A stretch of 64,000 nt of DNA from Rhizaria sp. SCN 62-66 (GCA_001724265.1 MEDY01000223.1:1-64000), one strand, 5' to 3'. Numbered from the stretch's first letter, positions 10,164-48,000 are shown. Numbers and translations: made by a program. Notes: generated from the sequence alone by a model not told the origin.

Positions 10164-13100
10164 TTACCTCACCTGAGCCTTGTTCTTTGTCCCCCGGTAG
10201 TTCTCAAGCAGCGGAAACGCATGCTCGCGCACAAACTGCATCATATCCGGCGACGCACCGGCCACCCGCGCGCATGCCAGCGCCGCGTTATGCGCTGCTG
10301 CCTCCCAGCGGGGGTTGTCCCGTCGCACCAACAGCATCACGCACGCGCCGATTGCGTGCAAAACGCCAACGCCCTCAAGAGGCCCCGACGGCTGCACAGT
10401 CGCGACTTTGGCAGTAGTCGCTCCGGCAGCCGTCGCGGCGTCTAGGACAGCGGCCAGCCCCGCTTGTTGCTCTTCGAGCTTGGCCTTCTTAGCTGCGCCA
10501 GCCAGGAATGCGCCGTTGATATTGAGCGCCGATAGCACCACGCGCGCCGACGACAGCACAGCGTTGCGCACGAGAACCGACGGCGCTGCTGAGAAGTACT
10601 TGTTCCAGTCAGCCTGCGGCACCAGAGTAGGCGGTAACTGGGCAATTTTTATGACGATTTGCGCAAAGTTGCCCGCCGTCTGCGGCGACCACGAGTTGAG
10701 CGCAAGCGACACAACGCCGGCCACGCCCGAGCCTGACGCAAGAGTCACGGCGTCGTGGAGGCTGTCCTCGCCGCGATCGCCCCAGATGCAGAACTCGACG
10801 ACTCGCGCGGCCGCCAGCGCGCGCGCAACACCGGTGGGCAGTGCGCCGGCCGGCTCTGGCAGCGTGGTGCCGCGAGGCAGCCTCGCGTGGTCCGCAGTGG
10901 GGATCGGGTCAGTCGCCCGCGCCCACTGCTCCATGAACTCTCGGTCTACGTGCACCGCCCTGCCGCCGTTTGCCTGCGCGGCCGCAGACGCAGCCTTGCG
11001 CGCAGCATGCTGCGCAGCGGACGCTGCAGCTTTTGCGGACACGGGTGCCGGATCCGGGAAGTAAGCCAGCTCGCGTGACGCCTGCTGCGGGTCATGCTGG
11101 CACATGATTGCAACAGCGCGGAAGCACGAGTCGCTGAGCTCGATAAGCTCAGCCAAGCGTGCAACGGCGCTGAGCTGTCGCGTGCGCCGCTAGTCGGCCA
11201 ATGCATCTGTCTTATTGTCCTCCTTGCCAGCGGGTGCGGCTGAGGAGTTGTCCGGCAGCGTTGCAGCGACCACCGCGGCGATCCCGGTGCCCAACATAAA
11301 CCCGATGCCGTTGCGCGCAAGCATGTCGTCGCGTGCGGCAAGGCTGCCGGCGAGAAGCCGGGTGAGCAGGGTCACGGCAAGCCGCATCAGCGTAATGTCG
11401 AGCCCAGAGCACTGGACGACTGGCGGGCTAAGTCCGGACGGCGGGGGCGCTACAAGCGCGAAGAGCGCCCAGGGTAGCGCAGGCGTGGCTGCGACAATGC
11501 GCTCCGCAGAGTGCACGCCTTCGGAGACTGCCAAGTCTAGCAGCAGATCAAGACTTCTGCGCAACAACTTCATGTAACTGATGATCGTCGCCATTCCAGA
11601 CGCGTCTCTGTGCAAGGTTGCTTCCTTGGATGCCGTTAAGCGGTCAAGCACTGATACATTTAGAATACACAACAACGCGCGCAGCGCAACGCAAGCGACT
11701 ACCTCCAAAGAGTCCCCCTGATCTTTGGCCTCCCCGTCCTCGTTATCCTCCTTAGCAGCTAAAGCAAGGGCAGCAACACGATCAGGGGCAGCAGCAGAAG
11801 TTGCAGTGGCGTCGGCTTCTGTGTTAGTGCTATTGTTGCTCACGGGCGCAGGCAGACTTGCACTCGCAAGTTTTTTCCTTGAGAGCTCCTGGAGCACAGT
11901 CAACGCGCTACTCAGAACCTCTGACGCGGATGCCAAGGCGGCAAAGTTGAGCTGCCTGCCGACAGACATGCCCATGCTGGAGTGCGCCTTGACGCCGCAG
12001 CGCTCCACGTGCGTCCGCACGTACGCACACCACGCGCCGTCGGCAAACGGCGCGGCAGCCATCGCGGCGTAGCTGTTTTCCCGACCGTGTGCAGCCTGGT
12101 TTGCAACGTCAAGTGTTTTCCGCGCAGCCTCGCTCGCACGTTGCGCGTCATCGACCTTGAGCGCCAGCTCTGCCACGGCCGCCGCATCCGGCTGCGCTGC
12201 CGCCGCTGACTTACCGCCCTTGCCGCTCTTGGCGCCACCCTTAGCCGCCGCGGACCCCTTGGCGCCCTTTGACTGCGTGGCCTCATTGAGCTTCTTGCGT
12301 TCCCGCGCAAGCTGCTCCTTAGCGGCCTCTAGCGCGCGCGTTGATTGAGAGGCGGCAAGGTATGCGCGTGCAACAGAGGGCACTGTTGGCATCATCTGAA
12401 ACTCCGACGACTTCGTTGGCACCAGGCTGGGGAAACCGACACCGAAACCAAACTCCGGTCCCGCAATGGAGTGCTCGCTCGACGCGTCATCGGCCGCGTC
12501 CCAAGCGACGCGCAGCGTGTTTTGCAGCTCAGATATTAGCGTAATCCCCGGTTGCCAGCCGCGCTGAACGAGCGCCTTGAACTGCGTGTCGCGAGCAAGG
12601 CCCTCGGTCATGCTGAGGAGGTTTTGCGTCGCGCTACGCCGCACTAACCGTTGCCCGCTTGGCAGCACTGATGCCGAGCCAAAGGGGCGCGGCGCGCTTG
12701 TCCAGGCACCCGTGGAATCTGTTGGGCTTGCGGAAGTCGCGATCGCGTCTCCAAAGGCCTGTAGCTCATGTTTAGTGTACGAATCAACCTGGAGTGCAAT
12801 GGCTGTAGCCATCACCAGCGTCTCTAGCACATCGTCACTCGGGGGCGCCGCGTTGGCGTCAGGGGCAGCAGCAGCGGCGGTGCTGGCATCAGCGCCCGCA
12901 CTCGCGCTTACCGACAATGCCGGTGTTGCGGGTGTGGCCCCGCTGACGATGAGTTGCGAACGTGCTGTTTCTGACTGCAGTACATTGAGCAGCAGCCCAG
13001 TCGCCGCCTCAAGCATGACTGCAATTCCGCTCAGCCACGACTCAGCGGGCGCAGCGAAAGCGGCGTCAGCTGCAAACATGAGAGCAACACGAGTCTCACC

Positions 13101-16100
13101 GGCTGAAAAGCGCCCGCAGTCGCAATCGTTGTAGCTCTCCAGTCCTCTGAGGTCGATCATGCCAGGATGGGCGGCGTCGCCATCGACAAGCACGTGTACG
13201 CCTTGCATGATTGCGCCCTCGAGTTGCAGCAGCTGGTGCACAAGCCGAGCAACGACGCGGACCGCGCCCGCGCGATAGATGTTCTCGCGGCCCGTCTCCG
13301 TCGAAGCCGCGTTGCGCAGCGCCGACAATGCGCGGACCACCGTTAGCCACTGAGAGTCGATGGTCTCTGCAATACGCTCCTCAGCTATGTACGCGCTGAC
13401 AAGCTCGCTTGCTGCAGCGCCGTGGTGCACGCGCTCAGACCGCGGTGACGGCGCCGTCCAGGTCTCTTCGGCTTCACGCGCGGCGGCACGCATTCGGCGG
13501 AGCACCAAGTGGGCGATGACGTGGATCCCGGGCAGCATCGTCACAAAAAATACGAGTGCGCGCGTAAGCATGCGCTCAACGCCGAACTCGGCAAACTGGA
13601 TGCAGTCCGGGTGCGGCGCCCTGGCAAAGAAGTTGAAAACCGCGGCTGAAAACGGCACTTGGGACACGTACCGACTCCAGAGCTGCGTTTGTAGCTCGCG
13701 AAGCGGACCGAGAGCAACGCGCGGGTTGTCTGTCAGGAGTGCCGCGGTGTACTCTAGCTCGGAAGCCACAAAATTCGCCGACGACAGGATTGCGGTAACG
13801 CGTTGACTTGATCCCGCTAATCCTTGCATTGGCACCCTTGTTGAATTGGCACACCGTATTAGAAAGTCCCGCGCAACAGCCAGATCACTCGAAACGCGCG
13901 CGTTGATGTCGGCGGTCACACCTGGGATGTACGCAATTGTCTTCCACAGAATTTCCAGCTCGTCCCGCGGCACACTAGCAAGCGCAGCCCGCGCGACCGC
14001 CACCGGTACCAGGGGCTTGGCCAGCGGATTATCCCCGCGTGCTCCAACGGCGTGAAGGTCTGTGCCGCCGCGGCCGCCGTTGCGGTTTGAACTCCACGTG
14101 TTAAGGCCTCGGAAATAGTCGGTTTCGGAAACTGACTCAATGCCGTTCACGTAAAGCATTGCATAAGCTTGCGCAGGCTGCGACAGAGCGCCGAGACGTC
14201 CTCTTGCCATCAAATGACAAACCGACCGACTGTAATCGCGGCTTTGCGCCCTTTTGTCGACGTCCGCACCGAGACAGCCGACGTACTTGCTGCGCCAAAG
14301 AAAGGCGGCGCTATTGCGCCCTGCCGCAACAGCGGCGCTCTGATATCCTCCGTCACCGTCGCCGTCATCGTCGACACCACTGTCATCGAACCCGCTGAAG
14401 TTGCCCAGGATGCTGGTGTCGTTGCTGGAAACGTTTTCCCGACCGTTGTTGCTGCTGCAGGTTTCGGACAACTCGTCACTGTGGAAATATCCGTCGCCGC
14501 GGCTAGGGCGGCGGCTGTGCGTCTCTTTGAAGTCGCAATTGATATCCTTGCTTTTAGAATCACAGCTGCCACTGACGGCACTCTCCTTGTGACCGGCATC
14601 ATCCGGGTCAAGCCAAACAACATCGTCGTTCTCAGGGTCTTCACTGCTGCTGCTGATGTTGTCAGCGTCAATGTCCACACAGGAACCAGGCGCCGCAAAC
14701 GCAGACTCGAGCGCAACGCGACATGTACCGTAAGGCTGTGTTGTGTTTCCGTTCAGGCTTGGACTCATGTTGCGCACACTCTCTTGATCGCCTTTGCTTG
14801 AACGCATTTGTTGCTGCTGGTGCTGCTGGTCCTGGCGCTGTTGTTGCTGCTGTCTGGCTACTGCCCACGCCTCTTCATGCATCAGACTGGCAACAGACGC
14901 ATCGCTGCTCTGCTGTTCTAACATATGCGCAATCTTGTCGATCTCGGGCGGTACGGAGATGTTGATGTGTTCGCACAGCGCGGTGCACTTGTTGCAGTCA
15001 GACAGCGCGTCACCAAAGCTGCCCAACGCCTGCAATGCCTCGATGCGACGGAGATACGCTTTGACCGGCACTGGAACGCCGCCCTTGTCCTTCGCGGCGA
15101 CGGGAGACAGCTCACCATCCTCCAAGTACTCGAAGATGTTGATTGCAGTCGATGCGTCCTTGACCGCGTCTTGGTACTGCTGTAGTTTGTTGTGGCACGC
15201 GGCGCGGTTTGCGTAGTACGTCTTGTTGTCTTTGCAAATGTCAATAGCGGCAGAGTAGTATTGCGCAGCAAGAGTGTACTGCTCCTGCTTAAACGCATTG
15301 TTTCCGAGCTCTTTAAGCAGGTCTGCCTCGCGCGGCCCTTCATCACACGCTGCCACAGCCGTTTCTAGCGCAGCGAATGCGGAACTGTTCAGGTCAGCGT
15401 CCAGGATAAGCTTGAAAAGCTTGTCGCAGGCGTTGTTGATGTTGTTTTCAGCATCTATCAAAGAGACATACAAATAAATGGATTGCGAATAAGTCGAATA
15501 TAAGACACGTGTACTGTGAGACAACGTCAGCAAACACTACTAGTTTATGATGCACTTTGACATATTGACGTGCGACTTTGTTGATGCAAAACACTTACCC
15601 AGGTCCCAGAAGTCCCAAACCGCGTGGTTTGGGCCCTAGATACCGTGGTTCGAGAGGCCCATAGGTCCTGCTTCCATATGTAGGGACGCCCAGCCCTCCT
15701 CATCGCTTAACAGCCCACGGTCCTCGAGCCACTGCTTGCGCCGCTGACGGCGCCGCAAGATGACTCCGAGTTGCGTCGCCCTCGCCACACACGCGCGCAG
15801 CAGCCGCTCACGACGGGCAGCGGCGCACACGGTGGGCTCTGCGCAGCGCTGGCATGTAAGATTCGAGCTGTTGTAGTACTCCCACTTGCATTGCTCGCAG
15901 TAGCGCTGGCAAGCCTCGAGCATACCGTCATCGGCACGGCCAGCCGCAGGCAGTGCCGCATCCATCGGGGCGCTTGTCGGCTTGGGAGACGTACCAGAGC
16001 TCTCAGGAATACTTGCAGTGAAGTACGCGGACACCTTGGTGTCGTAGTCAGCGTCGGGGTCAAACGTGCCGTTGCAGATGTCATTGATAAGGCGGTTGAG

Positions 16101-16151
16101 GGCTGAGACCCGAGCGACTGCAGAAGCTTTAGTCGAGGGTGGGGTCGACAT
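10164..16151 (-). CDS. TTC12-like TPR + armadillo-repeat protein, copy 1 (~1947 aa if TAG is read as sense); exons 16151-15599 and 15454-10164; in-frame TAG at 15636-15638 and 11190-11192
   Basis: TPR carboxylate-clamp pattern (LKELGNNAFK..YYANRAAC..KAYLRR). C-terminus NAALACARVAGASPDMMQFVRE resembles, from memory, the TTC12 C-terminus. Phase-1 intron GTAAGT..TAG is shared with copy 3. The 3' end could splice at ~10172/10167 instead of ending at TAA 10164. Confidence 0.75.
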
Positions 16152-16805
16152 TGGCGCTTAGCTACGCCTTTCTATCACAAGTCAGATTACAATACAACAT
16201 AATGAGATAATGTTAGTGCGCGATGTTTCCCAAAAGATTAATGATTTACCTCAAAAGCTCTGATGGTCGACGTCGCATTTTGAGGGGCTCCTTTCCCCAT
16301 CACATGAAAAAGGCAGATCTTGCAAGATATAACGAGGATTTTGATAGTTATATTTTAAATACGCTACATTTTAAGTTGTTCACTTTTTGTTTCTAAAACA
16401 ACATTTGATGGTCGTATGATTTAGCCTCTATCCTGCATTTATCACCTTCGCATGTGAGAGGACCCAAGGCAGGTCACAGTTACCACAGCTTGATTCGCAA
16501 TGTGTTGATCAAGACGTAAGATTTGTGAAAGGTAGAACTTGAAAAAATCCATAAGACATGTTTTAATGAATAGGTTCATTATGCTGTTGTAAAATAGTTT
16601 CGTTCAAAAGTCAATGTATTGAGAAACGTAAAAACAAAGGTGTGGTAAGTTTCGCTCCGTCGGCTGCAGTTGTTCGTAAGTATAGATTCATTTCGTGTCT
16701 CTCTAAAGTCAAAGACATGGAATATTTTTAACACCTAATATGCACAGGTCACACCATTATAAAACAGCTATGTAGCTTTAAGTTGCTTTTTTCAGCTTCG
16801 TTCGT

Positions 16806-21164
<4,359 letters not shown>

Positions 21165-21850: not shown

Positions 21851-24800
21851 TCAGGCTGACTGTGACTGGCTATTTGATGACGCAGCTTCCCTTGCGTCAG
21901 TCTTTCCCCGATAGTTCTCAAGCAGCGGGAACGCATGCTCACGCACAAACTGCATAATCTCCGGTGACGCGCCGGCCAGCCGCGCGCACGCCAACGCGGC
22001 ATTCTGCGCTGTCGGCCCCCAATAGAGGTTGTTACACCGCATCAACAACATCACACAAGCGCCCACTGCGTGCAAAACGCCAACGCCCTGCAGGGCAGCG
22101 GAGGCGGAGGTGGAGGCGGAGGCGGAGGCGGACTTGCCTGCCGGCGCAACGCCGCGAGCCGCGTCTGGCAGCTTTAGCAGCGCGGCAAGCTCTATCTGTT
22201 GCTCTTCGAGCTTGGCCTTCTCGGCGGCGCCGTCGAGGAAATTCGGGTTGACGTCGAGCGAGGCTGATACAATGCGTGTGGACGTAAGGACGGCGGTGCG
22301 CACTAGTGCTGACGGGGCCGTGAAGAAGTGCTTGCTCCACTCGGTCTGTGAAACCATTGATGGCGGCAACTGTGCGACTTTGACGACGATTTGCGCAAAG
22401 TTGCCCGCCGTCTGCGGCGACCACGAGTTAAGCGCGAGTGTAACGAAGCCAGCGATGCCGGAGCCCGACGCGAGCGTCACCGCATCGTGGAGGCTGCCTC
22501 CGCCGCGGCTGCTCAGGTCGCAGAGCTCCACAACGCGCGCAGCGGCCAGTGCGCGCGCGACACCGGTGGGCAGCGAGTCGACGGGGACAGGAAGTGGAGA
22601 GCCCGCGGGGAGCTTCATGTGCTCCGCTCCCGGATACGAGCCCGCCGCCCGCTTCCACTGCTCCATGAACTCCTTGTTGATTTGCACAGCCTTGCCGGCG
22701 TTCTCCTTTGCTGCCTTGGTGGCAGCCTCGCGCGCGTCGGGCAGCGCGGCCGCGGCGGCGGCCTTGGCGCTGACCGGCGCCGGGGCTGGGAACAGATCGA
22801 GCTCGCGCGAGGCCTGGTGCGGGTCATGCTGGCACAGGATCGCGACAGCGCGGAAGCAGTGGTCGCTGAGAGCTTTCAAATCGTCCGACAACTGCATAGT
22901 TTCATCAGACACAAGCGTTGTCCCGCTGATCGGCAGTGTCGCGGCTGCGACGGCGGCGATGCCCGTGCCGAGCATCAGCCCAATGCCGTTGCGCGCAAGC
23001 ATGTCGTCGCGCGCGGCCAAGCTGCCGGCGAGAAGCCGTGTGAGCGCGGCTGCGACGCGCACCAGCGTGGCAAGATCCAGCCCCGTCGCGGGGACGGCGG
23101 AGGAGCTCATCGCGCTCGGCGGCGGCGCAAGCAGCGCGAAGAGCGCCCAGGGCAGCGCGGGCGTGGCTGCGACAATGCGCTCTGTCGACCGGGGGCCCGC
23201 GGAGGCGGCCAGCTCCAGCAAGAGGACTAGGGACACCAGCAGCAGCGATGAGTTGCTCTGCAGAATGCTCATCGGCGTCGCGTTCGAGGCGTGAGTCTCT
23301 GCCGCCGCCTTAAAGCGGATGTGCAGCGGTGCGCTAAGTACGGCGGCAGCGGCGCGCAAAGCGACGCGCGCCACGAGCTCCAGACACGTTTCCTTGACGT
23401 TCGTCTCCGTGTCTGCGTCTGCGTCAGCGTCAGCGTCGGAGTCGTCGAAATCAGAGTCTAAGCCGGCCTCGGTGTCGTCTCGCTGGCGCCACCGGACGGG
23501 CTTGTTGGCGAGGTACAGACACACGGCCTCGTCGGCCACGAGGAAGGTCGTCGTCTGGAGGACAGTAAAGAGCCGTGCCGCGCTCGACGTCGCGGCCACG
23601 TTCTGCAGCGGTTGGTTCACGGGGACGTTCTTGGCCCCTGCAAGCCGGACACCGCTGGTCTCGAGGAGACGCTGCGCGTACTCGCTCCACACGGTGTCGG
23701 TGAAGGGCGCGGTGACGAGCGAGGCGTACTTGTTTTCCATCTCGACGGCTGTCTTGTGGGCGCCGTCAAGCTTCTCCTTTGCAGCGAGGGCCGAGAGACG
23801 CGCTAAGGCCGCCCTCTTAGCAAGCTCGATCGTCTCAACATTCTGCGCCAGTGACGACGACGATGATGATGAAGAAGAAGATGAGGAGGTCGACTTGCCA
23901 CCCTTGACAGTCGTTTTGCTGTTCTTTGACTGCTGCTGTTGCTGCTGCTGCGCCTGCGGCTGCTGTGCGGCCTCGTTTTTCTTATTATCGCGTGTGACCT
24001 GCTCCATCAGGGAGTCCGCCTCCCGCTGCAGCCGCGTGAAGTCATAGTACGCACGGGCGACGGCCGGCGCAGTGAACGGAAAGCGTGGCTCATGGGTATT
24101 CGCGCAGGGAACGCCGACACCGAAACCGAGCTCAGCCCCCGCGACCGAGTGCTCGCGCGCCGCGTCCCTACCGTCATCGCCGCCGCCGCGGATGGCCTTG
24201 ACGAGCTCGGACAGGAGCAGACGGCCCACAATCCACCCGCCGCGCACCAAAGCGCGGAGAGCCGGGTCACACGCAAACCTGGACGCCACGGTCAGCAGGC
24301 CCTGGGCAGCGCTGCGCCGCACGAGCCGTTGCGCCGTCGGCAGCACAGACACGCCCCCCACAGGCACGCCCACAACTACGCCCACAGCGACGGCTCCGGC
24401 TCCGGCTCCGGCTGCTGCAGACACTGTTGCTGTTAATGTTGTGGGAGTAGCGGAAGCGTCCTGTGCGCTTTGGAGCTCTGCATTGCGAGCCATGGCGTCG
24501 TAGGTGGCCTGGGTATACCGGTCGGCGCGGAGCGACAACATGGACGCCGTGATCAGTCGCCCCAGCAAGCAGTCGTCGTCGTCTGCGTTCCGCGGCTTGG
24601 CATCAGCCTCAGTCTCAGCATCTGCGTTGGTGTCGGCGTTAGTGTTGCCGTTGCCGTTAACGTCGCCGCCGCCCTTGTCTTTGCTGGCGGCGGTTACCGA
24701 CTGCACATACCTGGTGACGATCTCCGTGTGGACGTCATCCGACTTCAATGTCTCACACAGCAGCCCCGCTGCGGCGTCGAGCGCGACCCCGACCGCGCTA

Positions 24801-27800
24801 AGCCACGACTGCACGGGCGCCGCCAGCGCGGCGTCGGCAACAAACATCGCTGTCGTCCGGAGGGCCTGTTCGTCGCGTAACAGCGCGGTCGTCACGCCGT
24901 CATCGGGCGCGCCCAGGCCGCCGACGTCAACCGTCTCCGGCGTCGCCTCACCACCGCGCGCGCGAACGGCCACAGCCTGCATGAGGCACCGCTCCAGATG
25001 CAGCAACATGATCACAAGCCGTGTAACGACGCTGAGCACGCCCGAGTGCAACATGGCCTCCCGGCCGCCCTCGGCCGCAGCGACCGCGCGCAGGGCCAGC
25101 AGCACGCGCACGAGCGTCGTCCAGCGGCCGTCGACGCACTGCGCCAGCGCCTCGTCCTCGAGCGTCGCCTGGTCAAGCTGCCGCAAGCCCGCGCTGCCGC
25201 GCACCTGCCCCCGCAGCAACGGCGTCGACGCCTCTCGCGCGGCGGCGCGCGTGGCCGTCACGCGCTGCTGCACCACATCGGTGATAGTATGCAGTCCAGG
25301 CAGCATGGTTACGGCGACGAGCAGCGCGCGGGCCAAAACGCGCATCTTGGGCGCGCTGGCGGCGATGGCGGCGCGCTCGGCCAGCGGCAGCCGCGGAAAG
25401 CTGTTCAGCGCCGCCGGCACCAGAGGCAACTGGTCGACCGTCTTAGCCCACGCGAGCGTCTGGGCAGCGCGCAGGGCACCCGCGGCGACGCGCGGGATGA
25501 GGCCCGCTTTGACGGTGTGGTGAAACCGCGCCGCCTCGTCGCCAGCGATGGCAACAATCTGCCTCAGACGGGCGTGGAGTGCCGCCGCGCCTTCACCGCC
25601 GCCGAAGTCGACCCCGCCGGCGCTCTCGCCCAGCGGCACTTCGAGCGGACCGGTGTAGATCTGCAGAATGTTCAGCGCGGCATCCGGGTCGGTCGACACG
25701 CGCGCAGCCAGGTCCTCCGCCACGAACGGAATGTGTGCGAGCATCACGCTGAGGATATGAAGCTCTTGGTGAGGCACGCCAGCCAACGCGTGGCTGGCGA
25801 AGCTCTCGCGCACTTTGTCCGCCACCGCGACGTCAGCAGTGCCGCCGCTGCCGCCGCCGCTGCCACCGCCGGCGTTTGTGCGCAGCGACGTTGCGCCGGC
25901 CCTGCTGCCGCCGCGGCCGCCGCCGAAGCCGCCGGTGCCAGACGCGTTCATGACGCTGATGTAGCTCAGACGGACTTTGTCGAACTGCTGGGTGACTGAG
26001 GTTGCGTAGCCGCGGGCTTGCTCCGAGAGCTGATCCATCCGGGTGTAGATCATGTTGTTGTATATTGCACGCGCGCGCTCGCGGCTGCGGCCACGGGCGC
26101 CTACGTCCGCCCCTGAGGTGCCGGCAAAGGAGCGCAGCCACATGAAGCCATTTCTGTTATTAGTGCCCTCATTTTCGCCTTCGTTGCCGCCTTTGTTGTT
26201 GTGGTTGTTGCCGTTGTTGCTGCTGTTGCTGCTGTTGTTGTTGCTGTCGCCACTGTTGCGAGCCTTGTTGTAGCCGTGACTGTAGCCGTCATAAACGCCG
26301 TCAGAAAAACTCTCTGGGTCACTCGAACTGCTAGTAATGTTCTTGATATGATTACTGATCCGTTGAGCACTGTCAGTGTCGAATTCGGCAATGTCATTCT
26401 CTTTTTCAGGATTACCGTCAATATTGCCCTTACCATCGCCATTACCAGTGCTGCGGCCGTTAAGCTTGCCAGTCAAGCTCAAGTTTTTGCTGACCCGGCT
26501 GTTCGCAGCGCCAACGACAGCGTCGTTGTCAGCACCAGCGCCAGCGCCAGTGTCATTGCCGTTACTACTGCCCTTGGTGCAGTTGGCGTTCACCCGCCAC
26601 CCGTCGAGCGAGCCCCCCGCCGCAGCGCGCTCGCGGCCTGCGCGGTAGGCCTCGCAGCTCTGTGCGCGCACGGCCTCGGTCAGCCGCGCGAGCTCCGGGG
26701 GAGGCGCGAGCCCGTTGGCGCGGCACAGCGCGGCGCACTCGTCGCAGTCAACCAGCGCGTCGTCAAACCACCCCAATGCCTGGAGAGCTTCGATGCGGCG
26801 GATGTAGGCCTTGATCGGCACTGGCACGCCGCCACCGCCGCCGCCGCTGCTGCTGCTGCTGTTGCTAGACGCTGTTGCTGTGGCCGCTGCTGCTGGGGTG
26901 GTTGTGGCGGCACAGGCGGCGGTAGATAGCACGAGCTTACCGTCCTCCAAGTACTTAAAGATGTCGATAGCCGTCGAAGTGTCCTTGACAACATCCTGAT
27001 GGCGCATCAGCTTACTGTAGCACACCGCACGGTTTGCGTAATACACCTTGTTGTCCCGGCAGATGTTAATCGCGGCTGAGTAATTCCGCGCTGCAAAGTC
27101 GTACTGCTCTTTTTCAAACGCGACATTGCCCAGCGTCTTGAGCCTCTCAGCCTCGGCCGTGCGCCCAGCGCGATTCTCGCGTTCCAGGATCATGAGTTTC
27201 TCGACGCCGGAGAATTCTGCGCTGGCCAGGTCGCCCGACATAAACAGCTTGAAGAGCAACGAGTCTGCTTCAGAGATGTCGTGTGCCTCGTCTACCAAAA
27301 AGAGATATGATGCGCAGGTTAATGGGAAAGACAAATGATAATGATGTGGTGAGCTTACGGATGTCGGAATATGCTGCACTTTGCAACGCAATAATACACT
27401 ATGAAATATGAAACACGCAGTGAGCAGTGATCCAGCACACAGGTAAGAATATGCGTCAAAAGTTAAAGCTTTGTTGTTAGCTGTTCTGTCGCAAAACGTA
27501 CCCATCTATCCCCAAAAGTCCCACACTTCGTAGTTGATGCCAGAGGGCTAGCTCACAAGAGCCGCAGCAACCGGAGCCGTTTTTTTCTTCCCGCCGCCGC
27601 CGCTGCCGCTGTTACCCGCGCCCGCGCCGGTCGAGGAGTCCGTGGCCGTTGCGGAGCTCTTGTCACGCGCGTCCCGATCGGCCTGCCACTTGGTATGCTG
27701 CCGCTGCCGCATCTTGCAGACGCCGATGAACGTGGCTTTGTCCGCGCACACGCGCATCAACCGCTCGAGGCGCGCCAAGGCCGGGACGGTGGGGCCGGCG

Positions 27801-28114
27801 CAACGCTGGCAGGTGATGTCAGTGGGACGGTAGAACTCCCACTTGCAGTGCTCGCAGTAGCGCTGGCAAGCTGCAGCCATGCCGTTGCCAGCGCAGCCAG
27901 CCGCGGGCAAATCAGAGTCAGCAGTGGCTGAGGTTGAGCAATGTGTTGTCGGCGCTTCGGCGAACGAGGTAGGCGACTTTGCGTGGAAGTATTCCGGCAG
28001 CTTCGTGGCATAGTCCGCGTCGCGGTCGATGGTTCCGGCGATGATACCCTGGGTCAGCTTGTTGATCGCGGCACATCGGCCAAACGCACCATCGTCAGGT
28101 TCGGTGGTCGACAT
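21851..28114 (-). CDS. TTC12-like TPR + armadillo-repeat protein, copy 3 (~2017 aa); exons 28114-27502 and 27291-21851; in-frame TAG at 27548-27550 and 27506-27508
   Basis: Same architecture and same phase-1 intron as copy 1 (..VWDFW..|DEAHDIS vs ..VWDFW..|DAENNIN). TPR LKTLGNVAFEK..YYANRAVC..KAYIRR. TGA stop. Confidence 0.8.
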
Positions 28115-31658: not shown

Positions 31659-33406
31659 TCAGAGGTCGTCCTCGCCGTCGGGGACGAAGGCGGCGTTGGC
31701 GGCCTCGAGCTCCTGGGCGTACTGGGCCATCTGGGCCTCGTCGACGGCGGCCTCCTGTAGATACACACAAAACGCAAACGAAAAAGCGCGCGATAGATTA
31801 AGGAGTATGCAAATGTGGGGGAAAGAAAGAGAAAGAAAAAGAAAAAGCAAGGGAAATTGGTCAGCGTGGGATCATAACAGGCGCAAAATGCGCGATAATA
31901 TGTTCATATAGATCCAGAAAGACCGCAAAAAGGCTAACTCAGGAGTGATTGTAGTCCTTAAATGCAACGAGAGTATAGAGAAAGCGTGGTTAGAGTGGTA
32001 ATAGTGCATACCTGGGGGACGAGGGCGATCTCCTTCTCGAACTTGAGGTCAGCCTTGCCGGTGAGCTTGTACAGCAGGTACCAGAAGGGCTTCTCGTAGT
32101 GGTAGTGGGACTTGGCGGAGATGTCGTAGTACTGGATAGTGCGCTTGCGGTGGAACGAAATGTCGTTGGGGAGCACTGTAGAATAGAGAGGAGTGAAGAA
32201 CATATGGTAAAAGATATAAGAGTGGATTTGACGCACAAGATAGAATCATATAGAAAAAAAAGTAAAATATAATAAAGATTAAGTAAAATTGGACCTAGAT
32301 ATGTGCGTTTTGTTGTTATTGCACGTACCCTCGCGGTTCTTGCAGTCAACCTTGTTGCCGCAGAGGACGATGGGGATGCCAGAGCACACGCGGTCGAGGT
32401 CCTTGTACCAGGTGAGGACATTCTTGTAGGTCACACGGGTGGTGACGTCGAACATGATGATAGCAGCCTCACCGCCGATGTAGTAGCCCTCGCGGAGGTG
32501 GCCGAAACGCTCCTGGCCGGCGGTGTCCCAGCAGTTGAAGGTGAGCTCACCATAGTTGGTGGGGAAAGTGAGGGAGCGAACCTAAAAGCCGTGGAAAAAA
32601 CATAACAGCAAAGTGTGGTGAGTTAAAATTTGAAACATCAAGAAACCATACAAGAATCTACAGTTTTCTAGATAAATTCGGTTTAGATGCAAAGATATAG
32701 AGGGAATTAAGAACGTACCTCGACACCGATGGTGGGGATGTAGCGCTTCTCGAACTCACCGAGACGGTGACGCTTGATGAAGGTGGTCTTGCCGACACCG
32801 CCGTCGCCGACGAGGACAAGCTTGAACTCAGGACGCTGCTGCTCAGTAGCCTGTGAGGTAGTAAAGCGCGCAGATCGTAACGAGAGCGAGGGAGAAAGGT
32901 GGATGGTTGGCAGCAATCGTGAGGCCAGAGAAAGGGCGGGAACAGTGACGAGGACCGTCAGGAGAGGAAAGATAGCGAGGTTGGAGAAAAGGTATAAAGC
33001 AAAGGGAGGGTAAAAATGTGAGACAATGCGTGTAGTGAATAAGATGAGACTGGTAGGGGTGAGATTCGTGGTCAGATTTGAACTTTGAGAAGCAAGGCAG
33101 AGGGACCAGTTCGAGAAGCCGGCGCTTAAGGTTGTATCACATGCCTTGATACAACCAACAAAGCGGAGCTATACAGACGGCAATAGGATCAAACAAGTCT
33201 TATCAGCGTCCTCAAGACATATGGACGGCAAAAGCGCGTTGCTGGAGATCGCTGAAAGTGTGATCAAGCAGTTCCGACCTGGAGGAGTCCGTTGGCACGG
33301 ACGTCGCATCGCAAACATCGGAATCGGCGTTCCTCACCGCACGATCACGGGAAATACATTTGTTACAAAACACACAACAAAGTCATGAAGCTATTAGACG
33401 TACCAT
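31659..33406 (-). CDS. RAN: GTP-binding nuclear protein Ran (215 aa); exons 33406-33404 (ATG only), 32850-32719, 32581-32329, 32175-32012, 31754-31659
   Basis: [52 protein letters not shown], acidic tail PDGEDDL. Spliced length is typical of Ran. The ATG exon is inferred. Confidence 0.95.
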
Positions 33407-33884: not shown

Positions 33885-36126
33885 TCATCCGACGCGAGGG
33901 ATACCGATCCTGGCCGCCGAGGGCATCGTGACAGCCAGCGCCGCCGCCCCCGCCGCCTCGGCATCGGCCTCCGCCGCCGCCTTTGCCTCCGCCACCGCCT
34001 GGCCCACGCTGTGCGCGTCAGCCGCCTGCTGCTGACTCAGCTTCTCGTCCTCGGTCGCGATTTGCCCGAAGAGCGACTGCAAGCTGTTCAAGTTCTTCGC
34101 CGCCGCCGTCGTCATCGCAGTGAACTCCTGCACCGACAACCCGTCGAGCGCCTTGTACAGCTCCAGCTTCTTGTTCAGCGCGCGCACGCTCGTGTCCAGC
34201 GCGGCGGCCTGCTTCTTCGCCGCCGCCGCCTCGCCCCGGGCAGCGTCTCGCTCCCGGATCGTCTTGGCCGTAGTGGCTTCCAGCACCGCCTGCTGCGCCG
34301 CCAACGCCGTCTTATCGCTCACGGCGGCGTCCGCGCGCGACCGCTGCTGCGCCAGCGCGTCTTGGGCCTCCGTGGCGGCAGCCTCGGCGGCGTCCAGCGA
34401 GAGACGCAGCGTGGAGAGCTGCTCCTGGGCGTCGCGGAGCTCAGCCTCGGCCCGGGCCGCCACGTCCTCAGCAGCCCTAATGTTCGCAATTAAAAAGTCA
34501 GATATATCGCCATAGATATGAGCTAGTGAGATAACAACTTGATACAACAATATACTGTAGCATGATATGCATTCAAGTTAAATATATGTTCATGAAAATG
34601 CAATCAAGGCGAGATATAAGAGCACTTCAATTTAGTTGCTGTGCTATTCTTGCTGCAAGGATTATGTCTTTGCGACAACAACATACCTAGCACGCTGCAT
34701 TTGCGCAGCTGCAACCTTCTCGCTTTCGCCGGCCTTGGCCACCGCAGCCAGCATCTCCCTTTCGCGGTTGCGCCAGATGTTGTTTTCCCTCTCGGCCTCC
34801 TTCGCCCTCACTGCGACTGCCCTATGCTCTGCGATCGCTGTCTCAAGCGCCTCCTCGGCGTGAAGTTTAGCCGCCTCCGCGCGCCGCTCCCCGGCCAGCG
34901 CGCGCGCCGCCGCCGCCTCGGCCTCCGCAACGGCCTCCTGCAGCTCCTCCACGCGATCGCTCTCACTGCCCGCATGCCGCAGCGCCGCCGCCTCGGCCTC
35001 TGCGGCGGCGGCCTGCTTCCGCAGCTGCGCCAGCTCAGCGTCAGCTACGGCCCGCGCCGCCTCCACCGCCGCCAGCGCCCGCCCCGTCGCAGCCTGTCCG
35101 GCCTCCGCGCGCGCGGCCGCGGCAGTCAGAGTAGCCGCGGTAGCCGCGGCGGCGGCGGCGGCGCGCATAGAGTCGGACTGGGCACTCTCGGAGGCCTCGG
35201 CGGCGGTCGCGACGGCGAGGTTTAAGTTAAGCCGCGTCTGGGCCAGGAGGGTCGCCAAGACGATGGGGTCGCTCTCTTCGAGCAAGATAGCGTCTGCGTC
35301 GGTCGTCGTCGCGTCGTTGTCTTTGTCGTTGTTGTTGTTGAAGATGCTGATGCCACGGGTGGATGCCAACTGCTGATGCGTCTGAGACCGACGGGACGCC
35401 TGCTCCTGCTCTAACGTGGCCAGCGCGCGTTTGTGAGCCTCATTGTTGGCCTCGGCGGTTACGAGCAGCTCCTGCAGCTCCTTAACGCGGCGCTTGAAGT
35501 GGCTTTCCATCGTGTCGTACTTTAGGCGCAGCTGGCGGATCACCTCGTCCAGCGGGGCCTGGAGTAAAAAGCAAAGGATTCCAACACAAAGATTAATGAG
35601 CTCGATAATAAAACGTTGCTATAATATAAAAAGTTCATGTTTCTATCCGTAGACTAAAAGGTTATTATTATAAGTGCCAATATTGTGGAGATATATTCGT
35701 TGATGTGAGATGACGTACCTCGGGGACTAGTTCGAGCCCAGCAGCGGCGTTGGCACGGGGAGCGGCGGCCTTCTTGAGCAAATTGAGCTCTAGCTCAAGG
35801 AAGTAAATCTGCTGCTGCAGGTTGACGACATACTCGCGCTAGAGAGCCTTGTCACGCTTTTGCGCTGCCGTGACGGCAGCTATCGGTGGTGAGGACAAGA
35901 TTGAGGTCAGACAGAAAGACTGGTGTGAGTGGGCTATCACGAGTGACAGAAGCGTACAAAGCGTGATCCAAGGCATGAAAGCACAGATAAAGCATGATTA
36001 GGCTATTGACGTACAGTTTTGCGGGTTCGCAGAGCGTGAGCCCTGGAAGCTGGACCAGGAGCCCGTGGGCGTGGCCGCGCCGGCAGGCGTGCCAGAGCCA
36101 GCCGAGCCAGTGTTCCTGGGGGGCAT
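33885..36126 (-). CDS. Coiled-coil protein (~578 aa); exons 36126-36015, 35879-35719, 35558-34687, 34476-33885; in-frame TAG at 35839-35841
   Basis: Splice phases 1/0/2 are mutually consistent. Exon 2 reads SAVTAAQKRDKAL*REYVVNLQQQIYFLELELNLLKK. Later exons are Ala/Glu-rich helical sequence. TGA stop. Confidence 0.75.
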
Positions 36127-36378: not shown

Positions 36379-39300
36379 ATGTCTTCTGTAGACAAGCTTC
36401 TTGACGAAACTGACCCGTCACAGTTTCTCTCTGCGCAATTCAGCGCGTGGAATGAACCAGGGGTATCCCATGACTCGGCTCCCCGCGGTGCCCCCGCCGC
36501 CTCCGCCTCTGCCGCCGCCGCCGCTGCCGCAGGCAATGCGGGGGCTGCCTCCGCGCACCACGGCGACCACAGCGATGATGACGACCTGAGAGACCTATTT
36601 CCCGTGTCGCACCGCCGGAACAACGACTCTGGCCACGCTGGCGCTGGCGCTAACAGCAACACATACAACACTGCTGCTGCTGCTTCGATTAGTGCCCGGG
36701 GTCACGCGAATGTCAGTGTCTCAGTCTCAGCATCTGCCTCTATGTCGTCCCTGGCGCTCCCCCCATCAGAATCAGTCTCTCCCATGAGCAAGACCCCTGC
36801 CCACGGCACCAGCAGCAGCAGCAGCACAGCAACAGCAGCAGGGGCAGGGGCAGGGGCAGGAGCAGGAGCAAATGCTTCGATGTTGCAACATCCACACAGC
36901 AAAGCAGGTGGCGGTCTCACCTCATCCCGCCCCTTCGCCTCCACCGCAGCCCTTTCTGCGGCGTCGTCGCAGCTGTTCGACTCGTTCAACACCAACTCAC
37001 GGGTTAACCTAGCCATTATCGAGCCTGTGGCGACCGCCGCCTCAGCCGCCACCAGGGCCCCTCGGCCCCCTCCGCCGCGGTACGTGGCGCTAAACAGCAC
37101 TTTGCAAGAATTTATTACATGTCTTACTTGCGCAACACTGTATTTGATTACCTACTCAACTGTCATCTTTATTTGTGCTCAGGATTGTCATCATTTATCT
37201 CATTTTGTCTTCTGTGCTGTTTGCCTTGCTTTGTTTTTGTCCTCCATTTAGCCCGATCAAGCTGAGCTTGCCCGTGCCTGCCCCGGCCCCCCACAAAGAC
37301 GCCGCCGCCGCCGGCAACACCATTCAGTTACCGTCGCCGTCCCAGGCGCAGGCGCAGCGGGCAGCGTATTTCGCGCCCCCATCCGTGATCGCTGCCATCA
37401 CCCCCAGCAACTCTAGCGCTCATCCCGCCAGCAGCGGCAACACCAACACCGATAACAGCAGCGGCGGCGGCGGCAGCAATGGGAGTAGCAGCGCGAGCTC
37501 CGTTGGTGGCAATATCACGGTGATGTTCGACAGCTATGGCCAACTGCCGCCGTCGGCCCGCTACCAGTCGATGCCTGCGTTCAACGTCGCCAAATTCATG
37601 CGCTCTCAGTCAAATAACTCAACTAACAACAGTAGCAGCGGTAGCAACTCAGGGGTAGGGTACTTACACGTTGTGTCCCCCTCCACTTACACCCCGGGGA
37701 TGGCAGCGGGTAACAACCGCGTTCCCGGTAATGGCGGCGGCCTAGGTTCCGACGGCAGCGGCACTTACACGGATCTAAGTGGCGCGTACATGAGCGACAA
37801 CGAAACCACCGAAGTTAGCCACAGCTACCTCTACAACACCTATAACCACTATAATAATAATAATAACAACAACAACAACAACAACAACAGCAGCAGCAGC
37901 AGCAGTGTTGGTGGAGGCATTACGGTGGGCGGAATCGCGTATGACCCCCTCAGCCCTGCCGGCGACATCAGCGGCCCTCCTGGCTCCCACAGCAACGCCA
38001 ACAGTGGCCACAACGGGGGCAATAATGGCGGCAACAACAGCGTCAGCGGCGCCCCAGTGCTGACCCTAGAGGACCGGCAGGCCCTGGCCATCGCCACCGC
38101 GACCCCGCCCTCGCTGCGCTCGCAGCCACAAATTGCACTGCTCGCGGCATTCCTGCGGTCACTGCCGTTTTTCGCGACGTTCCCGGCCGAGCTGTGCACG
38201 GCCCTGACCATGGCGTGTTCAATCAGGCGGTACGAGGCGCGGGAGATCGTCATGGGGCCCCAGCAAGCGACCGTGGGCAGCGTGGGTACCACGGGTTCCA
38301 GCAATAACAACAACAAGGTCACTGTGAGCACCAGCTCGAGTTCGAGTGCGAGTGCTGCTGACGAGGACGCTGATGAGAACGCAGTTGTGTCTGAGAATAG
38401 CGGCGATCTGCTCGTGTTGCTGTGGGGCGGGGTTGGCAGCGCGCACGTGGCGAGTAATGACCCCATTTTGCTGTCAAAACAACATCAAAAGCAACAGCAG
38501 CAGCAACAGGGGCAGCAAGAACAACAACAGCAACAGCAACAGACGAGTAACGATCCTCGGCAGAGCAAGTTTGGCAACAAAGCCAAGTTTGACGCCATTG
38601 CCGCTGCCGTCGCAGCCAACAACCGCGGCTCTCTGATCGCTGGCCTGCCGGCGTCCGTCACGGCGGCACTCGCGCGGTCACCAGTCGTCGCCGCCGCCGC
38701 GGCCGGTGCTGACGCAGCCTCTGCTGCTCACGGTCATCCCCCCGCCCACGGTCACTCTCAAGGCGGCCAGGGTAAGAATGAGGGGACTGTATTGCCGCCG
38801 GTGCGCGGTGCCGCCGCCACTAACAGCATTAGCGCGAGTGCGCTCAAGACGGTCGGCAGCACGGATAGCCTGGCCAGTAATGACAGCAACAACAGCAGTG
38901 CTGCTGCTGCTGCGATCGCACCTGGCTCGACCATGAGGTACATTAGCGACCAACATTAAACTTGATATTTGTCTCCTATTTATCTGCTAATCACTATTAA
39001 AATTTAGAATTTACGTGAATGGTATATAGAGTTAACGTTCAACCACTTTCTCACTCACTAAGTATCTCAAAAACGCTTTTTCTCTGCTTTTTCTTCCGTG
39101 TTGTTAACCCGTCTGTGAAGGTTCTTGCCCTATCAAGGCGTTGTCCGCTCCGGTGGCTCCCTCGGCACCCTCGTCATGCCCACTGTTGACCTCACCTCGA
39201 CAGCCGCAACTACATCCGCCGCAACAGCAACAGCTGACGCTAATACCAGCAACAACAGCAGCAACACGAGTGACACGAATAATAACAAGAATAACGCTGT

Positions 39301-40407
39301 GGTTCCTAAAAAGTTGGCCGGCTCTGTTGCCAATGCAGCCAACACGGCTGCTACGGAGCCGGAGTCGGAGCCGATCTTGGTCCGCGTCGCCATCGAACCG
39401 ACCGCGGCTTTACTTATCTCCCGCTCCGTCTACACCTCCCTGCTCAAGGCCTCTGTTGCCAAGGATCTCGCGGAGAAGTTCGTGTTTTTGCAGTCTGTGC
39501 ACGTACTGGGCTGCTGCACGCTGCGGCAACTGCTGTCGATTGCGCAGAGGCTGGAGAAGATCGAAGCCTCTCGCCACGCCGTCGTCTGCCGGCAGGGGGA
39601 AGTGCCGAACGCGGTGTATTTCGTCAAGGAGGGGAGCGTGCGCGTGGTTCAACGCGTTGCACTCACTAGTAGTAACAACAAGAGCAGCGTTAATAACAGT
39701 GGCAACAGCGCGAGAGCGAAACCAAGTAGTTCCAACGCCCGTCGTGGCTCTAACAGCAGTTCAACTCCAACCACGCCTGCCGCATCTACAGTCGCCGACG
39801 GCGCTAACATCTCACAGCATCAGCAGCAGCAGCATCAGGGCCAGCTGGCGTTGGAGCCGGAGGAAGAGAAGCGTGGCAAGGACTTTGAGCTGGTGGACTT
39901 AGGTGAGGTGGGGGAAGGGTGGCATTTCGGTGAATTCGCGATCTTGCGCCAAACTGTACGTCATTGAACGCTATTTCAACAAAACAAAACAAAAGAACAA
40001 TATCCGATATCTCCGATGCAATTATTTGCATCATGTTTCAAAATGCGTTTATCTCTTTGACGTATCTCTCTTTAAAGTTACTTTTCGTATCCTGCCTGAC
40101 ACTTTACTCACACACTCTCTATGTATGTCTCATTTCTCTCTGTACTTTGCTATCGCCGATGTAATAATAACAATAACGACTACAGCTGCGCACCGCCAAC
40201 GTTTTCACAACCCGCGTCTCGGTGCTCTACCGCCTCCCCGTCGACGCTTTCCTCACTCTAGTGCCCTTCAACGCCAAGGTGACGATGCAAGCCTACGCCA
40301 CGCGCCAATACCCGACCGACGAGACCACGAAGGAGCAGGTGGCTTCGGACAAGAGGTGGCGAGTCTTCCGCAGGCGCCTCGTCAATCGGGTCAAGAACTC
40401 GACTTAA
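36379..40407 (+). CDS. Cyclic-nucleotide-binding domain protein (~1147 aa, two cNMP domains interrupted by low-complexity inserts); exons 36379-37079, 37252-38937, 39121-39955, 40186-40407
   Basis: FLRSLPFFATFP; FLQSVHVL..VVCRQGEVPNAVYFVKEGSVRVV. Splicing reconstitutes the phosphate-binding cassette GWHFGEFAILRQT|LRTANV. TAA stop. Confidence 0.85.
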
Positions 40408-45000: not shown

Positions 45001-48000
45001 ATGTACGGCCACACGGGCCGCGAGTCCCTCGAGAAGGTCTAGCTCATTCGGCTCGAAACCCAACGCAACATCGACCTGATAGCCCGCAACCTCCGCGGCT
45101 CATCCCCGGCCTACCACCAGCCCCCGCCGTCGCAGCCGCTGTACTCGCCCTCGCAGACCTACTCCCCGCACCACCTTCCCTACGGCGGCGGCGGTGCGGG
45201 CGGCCACCACGCGCTATTCGCCGCGACCTCGCCTTCCGCCGGCCTCGCAGCCTCACACGGCCACGGCCACGGTCACGGTTTCGCTGCTTATGGGGGCGGC
45301 AACGGAGGGCATCACCCGCATCACCCCAACGCGGCCGGCATCCACGACGGCGCCCTTGTCGTTGTCTCTCCTTCCAACTCCAACAACAGCGGTAACGCCT
45401 ACCCCCTGGTGTTGAGCTCCTCAGACGCCGCCGCCGCCGCCGCCACCGCCGCCGCCGCTGCCGACGGACAGATGCAGTTGCAACGCACTCTTGACCAGGT
45501 CCTCGACAGGCTCAGCAACGTCGAGCGCGCCACCATCGCCAACAACAACAACAACAATAGCATTAACAATGCGGCGAACGCGAGTGTTGGTGCCAGTAAC
45601 CGGAGCGTTGCCGGCGGGAACAATAGCCTCGCGCCTTCAGACTCAACCCTCTCTCTAAACAACAACAACAACGGGGGTAATGCTAACAGTGCTGACACTT
45701 CTGCCGTGAGTCTGTTGCTGCAGCAGCACGACTCCAAACTCTCGAGCCACGACACCGCCATTGCCGCCGTCGCCGATAAAGCCGCCTCTGCCGCCGCCAC
45801 CGCCGACAAGGCCCTCTCGGGCGCTGAGAAGGCAGCCACATCGGCTGACGCCGCCGCCGCCACCGCTGCCACCGCCGCCGCCGCTGCTGACAAGGCTACT
45901 GCGAGTGCTGAGAGGGCAGTGGCCGGCCTGGACCGTGTCACTGGCACCGCCGACCGGGCTCTGACCCTCGCACAAGACTCACGCGTCACCACGGAACGCG
46001 CGCAGATGACTGCTGAGGCCGCGAAGTCGACTGCGGAGTCCGCGAAATCGACTGCTGAGTCAGCAAAGAGCTCGGCAGTGACCGCAACTAGTGCCGCGGA
46101 CAAGCTGCAGCAGACGGCCGAGGCCGCGAAACAGACTGCCGAGTCAGCAAAGTCGGGCTCCGAGGCCGCGAGAGCGACCGCTGAGTCAGCCAAGCAGACT
46201 GCTGAGTCAGCAAAAAGCACCGCCGAGTCTGCCCGCGTCGGTCTCGACGCGGCACGGTCAGCGGCCGACGCCTTCAAGGCCAGCTGCGAGAGCGCTAAGA
46301 GCGCCGCGGACACTGCCAAGTCGACCAGCGAGGCCGCGCGGGCCGCCGCGGACCTCGCCAAGGTGACGGCGGACGCGGCGGCGGCGGCAGCGGCAGAGGC
46401 CGGCAAAGCGGCCACGGGGGCGGTGGCCAGGGTCGCGGCGGTCGAGGCCGCGTTGGCTCTCGCCCCGGCTCAGCTCTCGGTGCTGGCAAACAAGATGGAC
46501 AATGTCGAGCGTCGACTCAGCGGCAATGGTAATCTCAGTAGCTACAATGGCGGCTACAACAACAACGATCTTAACGCCTCTGGGTACAACAGCCACCCCC
46601 ATCTGCAACAACAGCAGAACCACAGTCACAGTCTCGGGCACAGTCACTTCTCCCCTTTTGCCGCTCCCCCCACTGCTGGCGCAATGGCTATGGGTGGCTC
46701 TGCGAGCGACATGGCCAGCATCAACGCCGCTGTCGCCGCCGCTGTGGCCGCCGCGCTGGCCTCCCGAGACGGCGAAGTCGCCGCACTCAAGTCCCACGTG
46801 ACTGCGCTGTCGGCGTCTGTCTCCGCGCTCACAGAGGCCTCGGCCGCCGCGCAAGTGACCGTGGGCGGCCTCAAGGCCACGGTGGGGGCGCTCGAGGAGA
46901 CGGTGGGCAGCGCGGAAGTCAAGGCCGCCGCCGCGGAGGCCAAGGCCGCCGAGGCTGCTGCTGCCGCCGCCGCTGCTGAGGCCAAGGCTGCTGATGCTGA
47001 GGCCAAGGCCGCCGAGGCTGAGGCCAAGGCCGAAGCTGGCGTTCAGAAGGCCCGGGAGCAAGAGAGAGCGTTGCGTAGTGCGTTAGCAGACGCCCTCCGT
47101 GGCATCGCTGCTAGCGGCGGCAACAACAATAGCAACAACAATGGTCATATTGCTGAGTCAGCAAAGCCGGGAATGATGGCTATGGCTGACATCACGACGA
47201 TCGACGACGAGGCTGCGACGGTTATGGCGAGCAACGAAGCCTTCGCTGTGGTCGTCGAGTCGGCGCCTGTCTTGGCGATCCCCAGCAGCGACACCGCTGA
47301 CTCTGCTGCTGCTGGTATGGCCGTCGCTGATGACGACGAGTACAATTACTCGTTCGACCAGTCTATGCCAGTCCCTCTGCCTTCGACTAACAGCTCTAAG
47401 CCCGCCGCGACCACTGCTGTTGCTGCTGAGGCTGGGACTGAGACTGCTGTTGCGTCGAGTAGTGAAGCTATGGCTGCTGAGCTGGCTACTCTCCGCTCGC
47501 AGCTCAATTCCGCCACAAACGACCTCACCGCCCTCAAAACGTCCATGGGCTCGGTTCAATCCACCGTCGACTCGGTCCAGACCACTGTGGGCGCCGTGCA
47601 AGCGACTGTAGGCGCCCTCCAAGTGACCGTGGGTGAGGTCCAGGTGACCGTGGGCGAGCTGCAGGCGACTGTGAGCAGCCAGGCGGAGGTCGTAGAGGAC
47701 GTGTACCAGCGCCAGGGCGGGCAGGAGGACGCGCTGGCTAGTCAGGTGATGCTCTTTAGCTCGGATTTGCATGATCTTTACAACCAAGTCGGCCGTTTCC
47801 CGCCCAAGTCTACCAGCAACAACAACAACGCCTCGAACGGTAACGGCACCTCTGAGACAGAGACTGCTGCTGCTAAGCCTGAGTCGGATGCCTCTGAGAC
47901 TGCGACTGGCAAGCCTGAGGCTGGTAAGACGGAGGCCGAGACTGTTGCTGTGTCCGCGCTGACTCAGCGCGTGTCGAGACTCGAGGGCCAGCTCGCTCGT

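Follow-up and report, generated by a model that had tools for sequence, protein, structure and literature searches.

In-frame TAG codons in a 64-kb protist contig suggest that UAG encodes an amino acid, with UAA and UGA kept as stops

The stretch of DNA analysed here, 64,000 nucleotides of a contig deposited as Rhizaria sp. SCN 62-66 (GCA_001724265.1, MEDY01000223.1:1-64000; hereafter the window), is a gene-dense eukaryotic sequence of about 58% GC, with short, AT-rich introns bounded by GT..AG. Besides genes for Ran, ARP2 and LSG1, it carries three tandem paralogues (A, B and C), a coiled-coil gene (D) and a gene for a long repeat protein (E). These last five genes contain nine in-frame TAG triplets: seven in the three paralogues, one in exon 2 of D and one in E. 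A sequence-only reading of this DNA had proposed that UAG is a sense codon in this organism while UAA and UGA remain stops. Our analysis arrives at the same explanation, decoding of UAG as an amino acid with UAA and UGA kept as terminators, and we give it a probability of about 0.7. What the window shows is that the TAGs are genuine and in frame, that coding sequence surrounds them, and that none of 15 gene ends uses TAG. From these 64 kb we infer that a tRNA reads UAG and that the rule holds genome-wide.

Each of the nine TAG triplets was recovered at the position and on the strand that the sequence-only reading had given, in five genes of three families and with coding frame on both sides (Table 1). 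At eight of the nine, the frame that contains the TAG had the highest codon-usage score of the three frames on either side; at 35839 the upstream flank enters an intron and the score ties. When TAG is read through, A, B and C each form a single open frame on the minus strand without TAA or TGA (10164-16157, 16806-21290 and 21851-28165, respectively). The claim that these genes contain no internal TAA, TGA or frameshift was borne out over their approximately 5,400 codons. UAG is nevertheless a rare codon, with nine occurrences in approximately 16,000 codons.

Table 1. Genes, in-frame TAG codons and conserved stop codons discussed in the text, in window coordinates
Feature	Coordinates	Strand	Description
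Paralogue A	10164..16151	-	~1947 codons; zinc-finger-like N-terminus, WDFW motif, TPR, long helical C-terminal region; intron 15455-15598; ends in TAA
In-frame TAG, A	15636..15638	-	codon 172; next base G; between zinc-finger-like part and WDFW; P0258 continuous across region
In-frame TAG, A	11190..11192	-	~codon 1606; next base C; variable linker just before conserved SDxCF..CQHDPQQ block
Paralogue B	16806..21164	-	1452 codons; no intron seen; lacks zinc-finger and TPR part; shared MST.. start kept; ends in TAA
In-frame TAG, B	20874..20876	-	codon 97; next base A
In-frame TAG, B	20388..20390	-	codon 259; next base C
In-frame TAG, B	17400..17402	-	codon 1255; next base C; ungapped, well-conserved stretch ..VELC-TAG-LSDRG..
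Paralogue C	21851..28114	-	~2017 codons; intron 27292-27501; ends in TGA
In-frame TAG, C	27548..27550	-	codon 189; next base C; upstream of WDFW
In-frame TAG, C	27506..27508	-	codon 203; next base A; two codons before GTACGT donor
Ran stop TGA	31659..31661	-	directly after conserved ..GEDDL tail; three upstream introns RNA-confirmed
Gene D, spliced model		-	ATG 36126; intron 35880-36014 (135 nt); exon 2 35719-35879; intron 35559-35718 (160 nt)
In-frame TAG, D	35839..35841	-	codon 51, exon 2 of spliced model; next base C
Gene E	45001-50763	+	long repeat protein; ATG 45001, TAA ending at 50763
In-frame TAG, E	45040..45042	+	codon 14; next base C
ARP2 stop TAA	57251..57253	+	same last residue as 89%-identical full-length P0127

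The three paralogues are old tandem duplicates with near-equal branch lengths; compared over 1284 ungapped columns, their identity is about 46%. Over these columns, singleton changes numbered 73 in B, 69 in C, 48 in A and 95 in the outside homologue P0004; as the count of B is not raised, B is not faster-evolving. All three TAGs of B (20874, 20388 and 17400) lie within the ungapped paralogue alignment. TAGs 15636, 27548 and 27506 of A and C lie between the zinc-finger-like N-terminal part and the conserved WDFW motif, which itself stands just before an intron that A and C share at the same place and in the same phase. The distant homologue P0258 (1203 residues) encodes the zinc-finger-like part, the linker, ..YEAWDFWEP.., the TPR and the C-terminal domain in one uninterrupted open reading frame (ORF), and lacks exactly the segments modelled as introns in A and C. 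Because P0258 spans the TAG-bearing region without interruption, the TAGs of A and C sit in translated sequence. None of the alignments to P0004, P0258, P0127, P0010 and P0015 required a change of frame, and exon 2 of A contains no ATG. No GT is found between WDFW and TAG 27506, which therefore could not be spliced out without losing either WDFW or the donor. For 15636 we considered a different donor (G|GTATCT), with which splicing would bypass the TAG, and rejected it since it would delete the WDFW conserved in P0258 and has no equivalent in C.

Several further features of this family were observed. The open frames of A and C continue across the shared introns (144 and 210 nucleotides), which are both multiples of three. 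In this frame the introns are free of TAA and TGA, against one to three in the other frames; a rough estimate puts the chance of this at a few in 10,000. Transcripts of A and C that retained the intron would remain translatable if TAG is sense. In gene B, an (AAC)n tract (19247-19379, minus strand) encodes a run of about 44 Asn, and probably explains a 12-base difference in length between the window and the assembled sequence L001. The family is very narrow: a phmmer search with the C-terminal 799 residues of C against 1.84 billion representatives returned six proteins, none of them named and three of them fragments from the organism itself, leaving P0004, P0257 and P0258 as the only outside relatives. 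P0257 (770 residues) starts in the middle of the family alignment and ends one or two residues before the SDHCF block, close to TAG 11190 of A; it may be a contig fragment, or the gene of a relative that is likewise interrupted by a stop. Pfam matches were limited to TPR_1, TPR_2 or TPR_11 in A and C, with nothing in B, and for the name "TTC12-like" that the sequence-only reading had used for the family, one TPR match was the only support found.

The TAGs are found in independent data. The 53-mers around 15636, 17400, 20388 and 20874 occur exactly in both L001 and L002, two contigs of another assembly that were the only sequences returned by a scan of metagenomes and are both pieces of the window itself. 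Contigs of a separate study (X4) that cover 20874 and 27506 show no other letters there; the X3 and X4 contigs, of runs from two further studies, agree, and no variant is listed at the five TAGs within 19400-39399. ORF fragments that end at the TAGs have been recorded from five to seven contigs of three sources (JGI, Logan and ENA), among them a strain variant, P0255, in which one residue is changed and the end at TAG 20874 of B is the same. The clusters of TAG-flanking ORFs held sequences of the same organism only, and no variant with a sense codon in place of TAG. Sequencing or assembly error is refuted for practical purposes.

The remaining two TAGs depend on gene models. TAG 35839 is out of frame with the longest local ORF, and in frame in the spliced model of D, whose reading frame continues from exon 1 to the coiled-coil body. 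The splice sites of this model are canonical (GTACGT..AG) and their phases match, with donor T|GTACGT and acceptor ..CCGATAG|CT for the first intron and GTACGT..CAG for the second. In E, 45001 is the only upstream in-frame ATG of approximately 170 open, coding-like codons, and around TAG 45040 nearly all codons end in G or C. An intron of 79 nucleotides that would remove 45040 was rejected, as it is GC-rich and unlike the confirmed introns. The 5' models of D and E are without support from RNA contigs. Confirmation by RNA contigs, of two runs, comes from Ran, whose three introns measure 257, 153 and 137 nucleotides at a GC of 0.30-0.41, with GTATGC or GTACGT as donor and CAG or TAG as acceptor. 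Contigs of runs X6 (polyA RNA) and X7 splice Ran; those of X6 also map to gene C, and a single X7 contig maps to gene B (20048-20198).

A TAG at 7304, in frame with the long LSG1 ORF, was considered as a tenth case and rejected, being the acceptor of an LSG1 intron. LSG1 (6187-9598, plus strand) starts at the ATG at 6187 rather than within the long ORF from 7307, and has two introns; two exons further upstream (approximately 6187-6615 and 6761-7117) encode the conserved N-terminal half, and 7304 belongs to the second intron.

The gene ends separate TAG from the other 2 stop codons. Our tally covers 14 ORF ends and that of Ran, and leaves out 5653-6672, which is LSG1 exon 1 running into its intron. 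It yields eight TGA, seven TAA and no TAG, in agreement with the count reported earlier from the sequence. Several of these ends can be anchored by conservation: Ran and ARP2 stop at the ends of their conserved sequences (Table 1), and A, B and C end 8-20 residues after a conserved NYRG, with P0004 and P0258 ending 2-3 residues after the matching position. Judged by this sequence conservation, UAA and UGA are validated as terminators at the C-termini of Ran, ARP2 and the paralogues. The absence of TAA within the genes is in itself weak evidence: with CAG and CAA used 293 and 69 times in the training genes, a TAA that was sense too should occur in frame only about twice for the nine TAGs. That TAA is a stop is instead shown by the conserved ends. 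ARP2 (55326-57253, plus strand) has four introns in the window, while its homologue P0127 (87-91% identical) is recorded as one ORF of 389 residues, and so derives either from a relative without introns or from assembled transcripts.

The base that follows the codon differs as well. C follows six of the nine TAGs, compared with an expectation of 0.21 from first codon positions (P = 0.004; a post hoc test with n = 9), and TAG-CTC is seen three times. A purine follows 15 of 15 real stops and 3 of 9 TAGs (Fisher P = 0.0006). This biased base argues against random nonsense mutations, which should not avoid a strong termination context, whereas such avoidance is expected of codons that have to be read through. 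The context of the real ends was also unusually strict in its own right, with A or G after every TAA or TGA (e.g., at 2670, 9598, 10164, 31659 and 57253), a strong termination context.

Homologous residues could be aligned at six of the nine TAG sites: Q/D/I, S/E/S/A, Y/R/D, G/N/T, L/P, and P, all of these sites being variable. Leu accounts for 1 of these 16 residues, which is a weak test as no site is conserved. Crude BLOSUM62 sums over the six sites rank Ser (+2), Asp, Glu (-3), Asn and Gln (-4) at the top, place Leu (-29) third-lowest, tied with Ile, and score Trp worst. These few sites appear to speak for Ser, Glu or Gln, residues that are small or polar, rather than for Leu.

Near-identical DNA was found in runs of six studies that sampled bioreactors, wastewater, activated sludge and microbial fuel cells; the polyA RNA library is among these runs. 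The four best named matches of LSG1 (Gymnochlora, Amorphochlora, Paulinella and Bigelowiella) are all Rhizaria. For the last exon of ARP2, 2 of the 120 matches listed carried an organism name; the higher-scoring was Guttulinopsis vulgaris, a sainouroid cercozoan (70% over the one exon), and the other a Pelomyxa transcriptome entry. P0127, from JGI data, represents the ARP2 of a related species (89% identical). The organism is a protist of wastewater reactors with high GC and few introns and, by these sequence matches, probably a rhizarian near Sainouroidea. Sainouroids have been reported as active in wastewater plants (PMC8827150). The one sainouroid genome, that of Rosculus vilicus, is given as 37.7% GC (PMC10770858), compared with approximately 58% for the window, which is therefore not from that species. 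Scans of genome contigs for more DNA of the organism or its relatives gave nothing beyond one bacterial-like match at 34%, and those of viral contigs gave no match.

A number of observations weigh against the reading of UAG as sense. Under the GC-rich codon usage of the window, TAG makes up 58-61% of all single-base nonsense outcomes, and seven of seven nonsense codons would be TAG by chance with P of approximately 0.02-0.03; TAG exclusivity, on which the sequence-only reading relied, is weaker evidence than was implied. A single family, with about 34% of the codons, accounts for seven of the nine TAGs (P = 0.009), and seven of nine fall in the first 18% of the coding sequence (P = 0.00016; Kolmogorov-Smirnov P = 0.0013), all of these tests being post hoc. 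Such clustering, early in the coding sequence and in one family, fits inefficient decoding, and also partial loss of function. ARP2, Ran and LSG1 contain no in-frame TAG, and no TAG site has a conserved residue among the homologues, so that no consistent meaning can be read from them. The 64 kb contained no tRNA gene, no Rfam match and no eRF1 gene. With TAG at none of 15 gene ends, the 95% upper bound still leaves room for about 18% TAG terminators. Among the matches listed, none of the RNA contigs over 19400-39399 covers a TAG, and the depth of X6 RNA is zero over 26737-28070 and 35408-36074. The lineage is placed by the best named matches of two proteins, LSG1 and ARP2, and in a quick tree of LSG1 the window has a very long branch within a well-supported environmental clade, adjacent to the chlorarachniophytes in a grouping that is not firm.

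The alternatives to a sense UAG differ in which of these observations they can accommodate. Splicing could remove the TAGs as intron ends or within small introns, in line with the frequent use of TAG as an acceptor here (the Ran intron ending at 32582, and also 7304, 29366 and 56521) and with the CTCTC that precedes 35839. The sequence upstream of eight of the nine TAGs has a GC of 0.57-0.77 and is coding in frame, however, unlike the confirmed introns of 137-257 nucleotides and lower GC; the three TAGs of B stand inside an ungapped alignment, WDFW and 27506 have no GT between them, and 35839 tried as an acceptor with the phase-1 donor leads to a TGA after 14 codons. We find splicing hardly credible. 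Editing of the mRNA is known from the sexual stage of some fungi, where A-to-I editing converts UAG to UGG. If it turned UAG to sense before translation, it would explain why TAG alone interrupts the frames, and the RNA contigs listed lie over no TAG. Yet no T-to-C difference is listed in the RNA runs over 19400-39399, where the genes are on the minus strand, although cover at the TAGs is unproven; Trp is the worst-scoring residue at the aligned sites, the organism does not group with fungi, and the missing TAG terminators are left unexplained. Editing is thus very unlikely.

More can be said for the possibility that A, B and C are recently inactivated pseudogenes whose nonsense codons happen all to be TAG, with the TAGs of D and E lying upstream of the true starts. 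TAG is the commonest nonsense outcome, a single family holds most of the TAGs, the intact homologue P0004 elsewhere could be the working copy, and the 5' ends of D and E are modelled. Simple decay is nonetheless rejected because approximately 5,400 codons contain no frameshift or other stop; if frameshifts arise at 3-10% of the substitution rate, the probability of seven TAGs out of seven falls to between 1e-4 and 3e-7. The absence of frameshifts, like the base after the codon, carries more weight than the exclusivity of TAG; the evolutionary rate of B, which shows no excess, is a further argument against decay, and so are the identical TAGs in independent assemblies. The base after the TAGs is non-random, the genes are present in polyA RNA contigs, and no in-frame ATG follows the TAG within the exon (D) or within approximately 170 codons (E), over which the frame is open and coding-like. 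We therefore regard the pseudogenes as quite improbable. A standard code with leaky termination, in which UAG is a normal stop elsewhere and the UAG-C sites are read through to give short and full-length products, accounts for the C after the TAGs, their rarity, and their clustering early and in one family; in A and C, moreover, a TAG closes the zinc-finger-like part, which makes a short isoform conceivable. It does not account for the lack of TAG at gene ends. Readthrough would also be needed three times in succession in B and twice in C, multiplying any inefficiency, and 5 of about 15 genes in 64 kb is, from general knowledge, far above known readthrough frequencies. We consider leaky termination improbable, too.

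The reassignment of UAG alone has thus been strengthened, relative to the sequence-only reading that proposed it, by the intact P0258, the conserved TAA and TGA ends, and the contrast in the next base, and is still drawn from 64 kb. In the mechanism we propose, ribosomes would insert an amino acid at UAG, with UAA and UGA remaining terminators; the reader of UAG may be a dedicated tRNA with a CUA anticodon or an efficient near-cognate tRNA. Poorly conserved stretches, the early parts of long genes and sites with C as the next base would be the main places where UAG is tolerated. As C gives the weakest termination context, this suggests that decoding still competes with eRF1. A more specific and tentative version, which we think unlikely, holds that UAG capture is at an early or incomplete stage in a free-living wastewater rhizarian near Sainouroidea: UAG would be gone from gene ends, would encode a small or polar residue instead of the Leu reported for a sainouroid, and would persist only before C and early in long, fast-evolving genes. 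If true, this would represent either a second independent reassignment of UAG in the clade or a living intermediate in which the release factor is still competing.

Whether such a code had been reported for this lineage was, according to the sequence-only reading, not to be told from the window. This is partly answerable, as the nearest named relatives are Rhizaria, the ARP2 match leads to Guttulinopsis, and a UAG-only reassignment in a sainouroid has been published (PMC5304391). The organism in that report, exLh (Sainouroidea, from an insect metatranscriptome), is described as reading UAG as Leu at 384 in-frame sites in 71 genes, with Leu at 82 of 86 hyperconserved UAG sites, UAG rarest in ribosomal-protein genes, and UAA (56 cases) and UGA (15) as stops (PMC5304391). 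The window resembles exLh in that UAG alone is probably sense and UAA and UGA are stops, in its probable rhizarian origin with a sainouroid as best named ARP2 match, and in the avoidance of UAG by the genes of highest conservation or expression. It differs in that its nine UAGs in approximately 16,000 codons include none at a conserved site, in that Leu is found at only 1 of 16 aligned residues, and in its habitat, as exLh was found in an insect and the window's organism in wastewater reactors. In the literature searched, no later report on the nuclear code of sainouroids or wastewater protists was found.

Other lineages are also reported to have reassigned UAG while keeping UAA as a stop. UAG encodes Gln in Iotanema spirale, in Protocruzia, and in some phyllopharyngean ciliates (PMC5304391, PMC11687900), with Gln and Leu given for Protocruzia and the phyllopharyngeans (PMC11687900). 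The genetic code table that matches UAG as Gln is NCBI table 15. Like the window, Iotanema uses UAG as a minor codon (about 8% of its Gln codons); the residues aligned in the window are polar ones, and P0004 has Gln at the place of TAG 17400. These lineages (Metamonada for Iotanema; Ciliophora for Protocruzia and the ciliates) are unrelated to that of the window, however, and Gln is only a candidate here. In the green alga Scotinosphaera, UAG alone is reassigned, to Ser (PMC11687900), which also has the best crude score in the window, although a score from six sites is no evidence of meaning. In the context-dependent codes of Condylostoma, Parduczia, karyorelictids, and Blastocrithidia, a stop codon is likewise read as sense inside genes, but there the same codon also ends genes, unlike TAG in the window. 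The C after TAG and the 5' bias are a hint that context matters here, too. With programmed readthrough as generally known, the window shares the weak context after most TAGs, set against the purine after all real stops; it differs in the number of genes involved, with up to three TAGs per gene, and in having no TAG terminators. Most likely, the window belongs with the UAG-only reassignments already known and does not represent a new kind.

Reassignments of UAG and UAA nearly always go hand in hand, the two being separated in no more than a handful of nuclear lineages. The 2017 report on exLh by Panek et al. used transcripts only, and did not settle which tRNA decodes UAG or how widely the code is shared among Sainouroidea (PMC5304391). 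If the contig comes from a relative of exLh, genomic DNA of such an organism is present in several public wastewater data sets, and a metagenome-assembled genome could answer both questions. Gene callers that apply the standard code split the genes of this organism at every TAG, an effect that is visible in public protein collections. The occurrence of C after sense UAG, of purines after the stops, and of the 5' bias would, if genome-wide, bear on how stop codons are captured.

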